Below the pieces are notes generated by a model. It made no database searches, was not told the origin of the DNA, and saw nothing but the letters and a program-made list of their open reading frames with translations. Made by a program: the position numbers and the translations under genes. This document shows, piece by piece, positions 21,711 to 21,728 of a stretch of 64,000 nt of DNA. The DNA comes from an uncultured Spirochaetales bacterium (lineage in GTDB: Bacteria; Spirochaetota; Spirochaetia; SPDA01; CAZSGZ01): NCBI GenBank assembly GCA_964458315.1, contig CAYWIK010000002.1:6433-70432 (forward strand). The letters are read 5' to 3'. The first letter of the stretch is position 1, and each line of letters begins with the position of its first letter.

Positions 21711-21728
21711 GTTTCTACTTATAGAAAC
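21711..21728 (+). promoter_or_regulatory. candidate operator, palindrome GTTTCTA-ctta-TAGAAAC, overlapping the transcription start of trpB2
   Basis: Perfect 7-4-7 inverted repeat immediately downstream of the -10; the same half-sites and spacing recur upstream of trpE at 43251-43268. Confidence 0.55.

Follow-up and report, generated by a model that had tools for sequence, protein, structure and literature searches.

A stretch of 64,000 nucleotides (nt) from an uncultured Spirochaetales bacterium (contig CAYWIK010000002.1, positions 6,433 to 70,432; the whole stretch is here called the window) contains two loci for tryptophan synthesis, and the promoter region of each carries the same short palindrome, GTTTCTA-N4-TAGAAAC. 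On the plus strand the palindrome precedes trpB2, and on the minus strand it lies between ssb and trpE, the first gene of the trpE-GD-CF-B-A operon. We consider it probable that the two copies are operators for a repressor of the TrpR family. The features on which this reading is built are the following (loci of other genomes are referred to below by L numbers and single proteins by P numbers):

21681-21710, plus strand: sigma-70-like trpB2 promoter (consensus scan 10/12)
21710-21729, plus strand: predicted trpB2 operator, 20-bp site TGTTTCTACTTATAGAAACG, core 21711-21728 (exact core match, kept in orthologues)
21782-23170, plus strand: trpB2, stand-alone TrpB-like pyridoxal phosphate enzyme (Pfam PALP match)
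36670-43200, minus strand: trp operon (Pfam matches of the member genes)
41788-43200, minus strand: trpE (probable TTG start 43200, ribosome-binding site GGAGG 43209-43205)
43237-43277, minus strand: predicted intrinsic terminator of ssb (terminator scan; stem 43277-43242, T-run 43242-43237)
43250-43269, minus strand: predicted trpE operator, 20-bp site TGTTTCTACTTATAGAAACG, core 43251-43268 (exact core match, kept in relatives)
43279-43307, minus strand: sigma-70-like trpE promoter (consensus scan 10/12; arrangement shared by L007, L010 and L011)
43314-43748, minus strand: ssb (Pfam SSB match; the ssb-trpE order is kept in L007, L008 and L010-L012)

The trpB2 copy, GTTTCTACTTATAGAAAC at 21711-21728 on the plus strand, is located 53 nt before the trpB2 start codon. 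The second copy reads GTTTCTATAAGTAGAAAC on the plus strand at 43251-43268; read on the minus strand, which is the sense strand of trpE, it is the same 18-mer as at trpB2, with the CTTA spacer included. No further exact copy is present in the window, in agreement with an earlier note on this DNA, which had described a palindrome shared by both tryptophan loci. When up to two mismatches were allowed, there were still two matches in the 64 kb, with a chance expectation of 0.20, and two of 100 shuffles reached this number. With W at position 4 and up to three mismatches, seven extra matches were obtained vs 4.9 expected, which is the chance level. A repeat or mobile element was considered and rejected, since the copies number just two and stand at trp promoters, and the weaker matches do not exceed chance. 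The identity of the two sites extends over a 22-mer (AGTGTTTCTACTTATAGAAACG, at 21708-21729 and 43250-43271), in which CTTA is in the sense orientation of both genes. The CTTA spacer is not palindromic and is free to vary in relatives, yet it recurs at the Treponema trpE sites L019 and L030. The shared 22-mer and its spacer could be due to chance, gene conversion or preference.

Promoters were recognized as consensus matches, and the positions of the transcription starts are predicted from them. At trpB2, the -35 box TTGACA (21681-21686) is followed, after a spacer of 16-18 nt, by a -10 box that is either TATAAA (21703-21708) or TAAAGT (21705-21710), and the operator core begins 2 nt after TATAAA. 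The orthologues of trpB2 have TTGACA and a -10-like hexamer at the same distance from the site. The trpE promoter on the minus strand consists of TTGACA (43307-43302), a 17-nt spacer and TATTCT (43284-43279), and the site lies 10-11 nt after the -10 box, between the promoter-like sequence and the gene. The placement is as the earlier note had described it, with operator-like dyads at the promoter or predicted start of both trp loci, and an overlap with the promoters of the regulated genes is what is known of operators of this kind.

The note had also proposed footprinting in related spirochaetes and a genome-wide search for the motif, and both spoke for its suggestion of a tryptophan regulon under repressor-type control. 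The first set of comparison loci was fetched by protein homology alone, with no DNA motif in the selection. Among the relatives of trpB2, four lineages with 81-96% protein identity (L003/4, L005/6, L001/2 and L137) have kept the element in place, directly after a promoter of the form TTGACA-17-(-10). The sites in these lineages read as follows:

L003: GTTTCTATTCATAGAAAC
L005: GTTTCTACACATAGAAAC
L001 (Marispirochaeta aestuarii): GTTACTGCGTATAGTAAC
L137: GTTACTACATACAGTAAC

The core is likewise kept upstream of trpE in all of the relatives L007-L012 (66-86% identity), and L011 has a second operator copy, the spacer of which is the -35 box TTGACA. A second, independent sample consisted of 78 metagenomic loci fetched by TrpE homology. 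One to three sites are present in nine of the 11 loci whose identity is at least 49%, and sites are present in three of the 67 loci with 45% identity or less. As the site is rare in the distant TrpE loci, it is not inherent to trpE leaders and marks particular lineages. The trpE genes of L012 and L139 have, in addition to the operator, a separate leader peptide with Trp codons and a terminator. In these two more distant loci (L012 at ~4700-5000, L139 at ~1290-1480) the operator is followed by a short leader open reading frame (ORF), behind which come a hairpin rich in GC and a run of T8; the leader peptides are MKPIRIERMNGTADSSPRRGWWRPR* (L012, ends GWWRPR*) and MNPTHFWHWRI* (L139, ends FWHWRI*). 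Such loci would have classical attenuation as well as repression.

The genome scan used the pattern TGTTTCTANNNATAGAAAC (exact core) and one genome per species, and it matched at least 120 loci. Because approximately 280 chance matches are expected in the whole 596-Gb collection, these loci are a mixture of real and chance sites. In at least 65 of the 120 listed loci, as counted from gene clusters, the motif is found no more than ~400 nt upstream of a tryptophan-related gene. Among the listed loci, at least 24 are at trpE operons, at least 13 at trpB or trpB2, at least 18 at a gene of the TrpR family and at least 10 at other tryptophan-related genes (TrpX-like PF04392 binding proteins, TrpP PF17099, class II DAHP synthase, a PF02653 ABC permease and trpD). 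The motif is therefore seen beside genes of tryptophan biosynthesis and uptake and beside trpR itself, which is the composition known for TrpR regulons (PMC5343134 gives that of gammaproteobacteria).

The motif is not restricted to spirochaetes. The motif-bearing Spirochaetota include Treponema and Leptospirales, and the other matched loci come from Verrucomicrobiota, Lentisphaerota, Kiritimatiellia, Desulfobacterota, Acidobacteriota (Holophagaceae), Myxococcota (Myxococcales), Bacteroidota (Bacteroidia), Fibrobacterota, Fermentibacteria, Elusimicrobiota, Zixibacteria, Ignavibacteriales and Gastranaerophilales. The trp-linked motif loci belong to more than ten phyla. Seven matches, from Flavobacteriia and other Bacteroidota (L050, L077, L091, L108, L110, L119 and L132), have GTTTCTAGA[CT]ATAGAAAC or a sequence close to it at 28-283 nt upstream of one and the same conserved protein (~125-215 amino acids), which is unrelated to tryptophan genes. 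On its sequence and context, this set looks like a different conserved site that matches the search pattern by coincidence.

Around 71 trp-linked sites, TTGAC occurs 51 times within the 60 nt upstream vs six times downstream, and its positions fall into three classes. In the commonest one (-29/-30), to which the trpB2 site of the window belongs (-30), the operator abuts the -10 box. In the second (-17 to -22) the -10 box is inside the operator centre, and in the third (-37 to -46), which includes the trpE site of the window (-39), the operator is one helical turn further downstream. Among the trp-linked sites one often finds a second operator whose spacer contains TTGACA, a -35 box, and tandem copies at distances of 18-21 bp.

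The consensus of 73 trp-linked sites is TGTTTCTAT-NN-ATAGAAACA, with T or A at position 4 of the half-site. At the positions that the search had left free, T is the first spacer base in 61 of the 73 sites and A directly follows the core in 60 of them, and because these free positions are symmetric the element is a palindrome of 20 bp, the size known for operators of the TrpR family. Such symmetric conservation of the "loop" and the flank is what a dimeric DNA-binding protein would be expected to produce. In addition, the two half-sites differ at position 4 in L012, L019 and L059. Mismatched halves at this position would break the pairing of an RNA stem and fit a degenerate protein contact, so that contact with DNA is favored over an RNA stem.

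A candidate for the binding protein is found in the matched loci. In at least 18 of the listed loci the first gene after the motif, 3-73 nt behind it, encodes a TrpR-family protein of ~90 amino acids and is usually followed by trpB2 or trpB. These proteins score 62-72 bits against PF01371 (cut-off 27). With the TIGR01321 (TrpR) model they reach 49-56 bits vs the cut-off of 67.25, which is below the equivalog threshold, and with the YerC/HisR-type model 23-32 bits. Many of them are named "TrpR family trp operon repressor" in the source databases. Their PDB matches include Escherichia coli TrpR, and the register of the alignment agrees with the 1TRO match. R54, R84, T44 and G85 of E. coli TrpR form the Trp pocket. 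The equivalents of T44, R54, Q68, R69, T83, R84 and G85 are invariant in the alignment with E. coli TrpR; across 15 aligned sequences those of T44, R54, R84 and G85 are invariant and that of S88 is not. The recognition helix begins with SLCKITRGS vs GIATITRGS in E. coli (LCK vs IAT). As the proteins score below the TIGR01321 cut-off and the operator departs from the gammaproteobacterial consensus, they form a separate subfamily within PF01371. The position of trpR directly behind the motif can be taken as a sign of autoregulation in many lineages. The suggestion in the earlier note of a control unrelated to TrpR and of an undescribed kind is not supported, given the TrpR-family gene behind the motif in these loci (at least 18 of those listed).

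PF01371 proteins are also encoded in other spirochaete genomes. In several large ones (L133-L136, at 4001-4288, or 836-1123 in L136) trpR shares 8 nt with the end of a gene for a sigma-54-type response regulator, which itself follows a histidine kinase gene, and the operator is not found nearby. In this lineage trpR seems, from the gene arrangement, to be expressed together with the two-component system and not to be autoregulated.

At trpE the palindrome is part of a longer one. The earlier note had given its length as 34 bp, and it indeed comprises 34-36 bp (43242-43277), which correspond to a stem of 16 pairs with a 4-nt loop. The top of the stem is the operator core, six T follow the stem, and the whole begins ~37 nt after the ssb stop codon. 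The RNA fold has a free energy of -23.2 kcal/mol (z -7.5). When the window is compared with L007, L010 and L011, the outer eight pairs differ in sequence yet stay paired: five of them are altered on both sides, pairing holds in 98% of cells, and none of 500 shuffles reaches the score for these four sequences. The seven inner core pairs are invariant across the same four. Several outer pairs are U.G and are valid on the sense strand only. The stem-loop, the U-run, the gene upstream on the same strand and the covariation are all features of an intrinsic terminator. In L012, L138 and L139, in which ssb has its own terminator or another gene lies upstream, the operator has no extension. A reading of the extended arms as a longer operator is not borne out by the covarying stem, the sense-only G.U pairs and the T-run. 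From these sequences we conclude that the arms represent the terminator of ssb, for which the operator palindrome was recruited as the top of the stem.

In this respect the trpE arms resemble common intrinsic terminators, with a GC-containing stem of 16 pairs, a 4-nt loop, an immediate U-run and covariation. They differ from ordinary ones in that 1-2 nt separate the -10 box of the next operon from the stem, the upper half of which is a predicted repressor operator. One 36-bp palindrome thus appears to serve two genes. In all four lineages the -10 box ends 1-4 nt before the stem (1-2 nt in the window), and since transcription is expected to start ~7 nt after the -10 box, the predicted trpE start falls within the 5' arm, 3-5 nt from its beginning. 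A read-through transcript of ssb would contain the whole stem and would terminate, and a transcript begun at the trpE promoter would be missing the stem base beside the U-run and would continue into trpE. Two other spirochaete metagenome-assembled genomes (MAGs) have the trpE operator within a perfect palindrome of 36-38 bp (L027 at ~5845-5895, L069 at ~2105-2150), with the flanks atttccttat/ataaggaaat and ttgcactgt/acagtgcaa, respectively. For these the terminator explanation is not obviously applicable on the sequence, because no T-run follows and the -35 box is only ~11 nt upstream.

The properties of the trpE hairpin raise the question of whether the palindrome acts in the RNA, as the site of an RNA-binding regulator in the 5' leader or as an attenuator or terminator at trpE, and not as a DNA operator. 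The strong fold with its U-run, the covariation of the outer pairs including those specific to the sense strand, and the same non-palindromic spacer in sense orientation at both copies would all be compatible with this. At trpB2, however, the RNA hairpin is weak (8 bp, -7 kcal/mol, z -1.35) and has no U-run, and with 0-2 nt between it and the -10 box the transcript probably lacks part of the 5' arm. The motif contains the -10 or the -35 box in many loci, the loop-closing and flanking positions are symmetric and extend the palindrome to 20 bp, and the differences between the halves at position 4 would disrupt pairing. The core shows no compensatory change, unlike the outer stem. As the hairpin begins at the promoter, trpE has no upstream RNA that could serve as an antiterminator partner. 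No Rfam family (T-box, riboswitch etc.) matched the whole window at the gathering score or either leader at an E-value of 1 or below, and an ORF for a Trp-codon leader peptide was not found in either leader of the window, in line with the earlier statement that a T-box or leader-peptide attenuator is absent. Control of the TRAP type needs 9-11 regularly spaced repeats; the trpB2 leader contains ~5 irregularly spaced UAG/GAG triplets, and this candidate was rejected by eye, with no formal test. Taken as a whole, an RNA element is quite unlikely. Still less credible, and in our view highly improbable, is the reading in which the trpE copy is a mere ssb terminator and the trpB2 copy a match by chance or from a repeat element. 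Although the trpE copy has the full terminator anatomy directly after ssb, and a window with only two copies is also produced by two of 100 shuffles, the core is kept at both promoters in relatives with diverged terminator flanks, trpE promoters without the extended stem also have it (L012, L138 and Treponema-like loci), and its position beside trp genes in at least 65 of the 120 listed genome matches contradicts chance.

We regard it as probable that both sites are 20-bp DNA operators to which a TrpR-family repressor binds as a dimer, with L-tryptophan as the presumed corepressor; repressor-type control of a tryptophan regulon, as put forward in the earlier note, accords with operator-like dyads that are kept at trp promoters. 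Several points weigh against this assignment. The counts of listed loci are lower bounds and not frequencies, and the conservation of the core across phyla is partly a product of the search design, because the scan demanded the exact core. The inner sequence of the operator is unlike that of every described TrpR operator compared. A PF01371 gene was not found in the window or in the 12 closest loci, L001-L012 (tblastn; six-frame profile search, best E-value 1.4), so that the gene of the proposed regulator would be located elsewhere in the genome. The spirochaete TrpR genes P0310 and P0327 are on megabase contigs, and no link from these to a motif-bearing genome, also one of the Marispirochaeta type, was found; TrpR P0310 and TrpB2 P0014 come from the same sample, on different large contigs. 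Both genes stand behind a two-component system and have no operator upstream, hence autoregulation is not universal. Some of these observations could equally be read as favoring DNA operators of the tryptophan regulon that are bound by another regulator, with trpR merely one member of the regulon: trpR is missing from the window and the closest loci, the inner half-site is unfamiliar, and the TrpR-family proteins stay below the TIGR01321 equivalog cut-off. But a TrpR-family gene is the first one behind the motif in at least 18 listed loci from many phyla, no other regulator family recurs there, and TrpR is paralleled in the 20-bp palindrome and its TGT...ACA ends, in the arrays of tandem sites, in the overlap with promoters and in the make-up of the regulon. 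Another regulator is thus unlikely.

If the sites are TrpR-family operators, a tryptophan-loaded dimer would bind each of them when tryptophan is plentiful, and in this state RNA polymerase would be kept from binding, from forming the open complex or from escaping the promoter. The trpB2 operator lies directly against the -10 box and extends over the likely start, and a repressor there would occlude the -10/+1 region. At trpE, it lies approximately one helical turn further downstream, at about +4 to +23, where early elongation or promoter escape would be blocked. The result would be a joint repression of trpB2, probably with the small ORF behind it, and of the seven-function trp operon. In the window each promoter has a single operator, with no attenuator. 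A second or third operator, or a leader with Trp codons and a terminator, is present in addition in some relatives.

Operators of the TrpR family are 20-bp palindromes, and the motifs described for gammaproteobacterial TrpR and for HisR are TGTAcTnGTnnACnAgTACA and cacTTTAnnnnnnTAAAgtg, respectively (PMC9413887). One account of TrpR regulons describes them in gammaproteobacteria only (PMC5343134), and a metagenome study reported that no trpR homologues were found (PMC2395257). The repressor gene of Chlamydia trachomatis trpRBA is the first gene of the tryptophan-synthase unit and is regulated from its own promoter (PMC7755916). The TrpR regulons in the literature found are those of gammaproteobacteria and chlamydiae only (PMC7755916, PMC5343134, PMC9413887). 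A literature search that covered the motif and TrpR regulons in spirochaetes, Bacteroidota or Verrucomicrobiota, but not RegPrecise, gave no description of the present operator consensus.

The system shares many features with TrpR of E. coli and other gammaproteobacteria (operators of trpEDCBA, aroH, trpR, mtr and aroL). The motif loci encode a small all-helical PF01371 protein, the 20-bp palindrome has TGT...ACA ends, overlaps promoters and occurs in tandem, trpR appears autoregulated in many lineages, and the regulon contains trp genes, DAHP synthase and tryptophan transporters. As in E. coli, repression is accompanied by leader-peptide attenuation in some relatives. On the other hand, the inner half-site is TTTCTAT vs TGTAcTnGTnnACnAgTACA, and in each half the shared CTA is nearer to the dyad by 1 bp; agreement with the gammaproteobacterial consensus, which the sites do not match, is limited to the TGT/ACA ends and T9/A12. 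The statement in the earlier note that the sequence does not resemble the E. coli TrpR box holds for the inner bases, but not for the 20-bp palindrome and its TGT...ACA ends, which are shared with the TrpR motif. Further differences from the E. coli and gammaproteobacterial repressors are the recognition helix (LCK vs IAT), the scores under the TIGR01321 cut-off, the regulon with stand-alone trpB2, TrpP and TrpX-type transporters, and the occurrence in non-proteobacterial phyla.

The order operator-trpR-trpB in the listed trpR loci (at least 18) is the same as in C. trachomatis trpRBA. In the window and the closest relatives, unlike in C. trachomatis, trpR is not beside trpB2, and a second regulator of the YtgR type is not evident. 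The histidine repressor HisR (YerC) has the same Pfam family, a 20-bp palindromic operator and frequent autoregulation in common with the present system (PMC9413887). HisR differs in its motif, cacTTTAnnnnnnTAAAgtg, in its his genes and histidine corepressor, and in that the Trp-contacting residues are replaced. The proteins of the motif loci score better on the TrpR model than on the YerC model and are located at trp genes. Judged from the sequences, the operating principle is that of the classical TrpR system, in a distinct subfamily within the family.

The remaining genes at the two sites are:

40176-41801, minus strand: trpGD (Pfam match)
38692-40206, minus strand: trpCF (Pfam match)
37452-38705, minus strand: trpB (intact: tblastn, 71% identity over 415 amino acids)
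36670-37455, minus strand: trpA (Pfam match)
23177-23437, plus strand: small Cys-rich ORF, 86 amino acids, directly behind trpB2 (homologous ORFs behind trpB2 in relatives)

On the minus strand the gene order is ssb, trpE, trpGD, trpCF, trpB, trpA. The likely start of trpE is TTG 43200 and not ATG 43236, because of the ribosome-binding site GGAGG and an 86%-identical homologue of 470 amino acids with the same start and length (P0122, L007). The public gene call for a 99%-identical TrpE (P0121, 482 amino acids) begins at the ATG directly after the terminator T-run. The trpB2 product is 81-96% identical to proteins named TrpB-like or tryptophan synthase beta chain in the source databases. In the closest relative (L003/L004, TrpB2 identity 96%) an extra gene for 114 amino acids (3357-3701) is inserted between a CBS-domain gene and trpB2. 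It has only a faint HTH_Rpn_C match, the window does not contain it, and it leaves the promoter and operator of trpB2 as they are.

The ORF behind trpB2 belongs to a family of 83-90 amino acids with four conserved Cys and the pattern YCRxLGHxVPFxYCRKP...FCRNIxSCW ... PKPKMxSLxELIxKA, encoded directly after or overlapping the end of trpB2. Homologues behind trpB2 are present in spirochaetes and in a Desulfobacterium MAG (L002, L003-L006, L066 and L121; for instance L002 5383-5652, L003 5396-5653, L005 5380-5646, L066 ~2426-2680 and L121 ~3140-3367). Searches of Pfam, NCBIfam and PDB gave no match for it. The ORF is probably co-transcribed with trpB2 and hence under the same operator, and the mini-protein may be a metal-binding partner of TrpB2. 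It was rejected as a regulator, as it has no helix-turn-helix and no family match and does not recur beside the motif as trpR does.

A wider interpretation combines these observations: a separate TrpR clade of many phyla with its own operator code (TGTTWCTAT-NN-ATAGWAACA) and a regulon, neither of them described so far, that includes trpB2 and the Cys-rich mini-protein, and, in addition, one 36-bp palindrome that acts as ssb terminator in RNA, as TrpR operator in DNA and as the first transcribed bases of trpE, with the choice between stopping and reading on set by whether the transcript starts in ssb or inside the stem. In this complete form the interpretation is tentative and we consider it possible, though rather doubtful.

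What stands out is how broad the clade is, that trpB2 and its Cys-rich partner are connected to it, and that a terminator contains a predicted operator. The finding provides a testable cis-element and a candidate regulator for the control of tryptophan synthesis in spirochaetes and at least ten other phyla. Stand-alone trpB2, which is poorly understood, and the conserved Cys-rich protein would be tied to tryptophan-responsive regulation. For the annotation of trp regulons in MAGs the 20-bp consensus is of direct use, including the predicted TrpP and TrpX-type transporters. The recognition helix reads LCK instead of IAT and the half-site is different as well, a natural example on which the evolution of specificity in the TrpR family can be studied, and the overlap of terminator, promoter and operator between ssb and trpE is a compact design.

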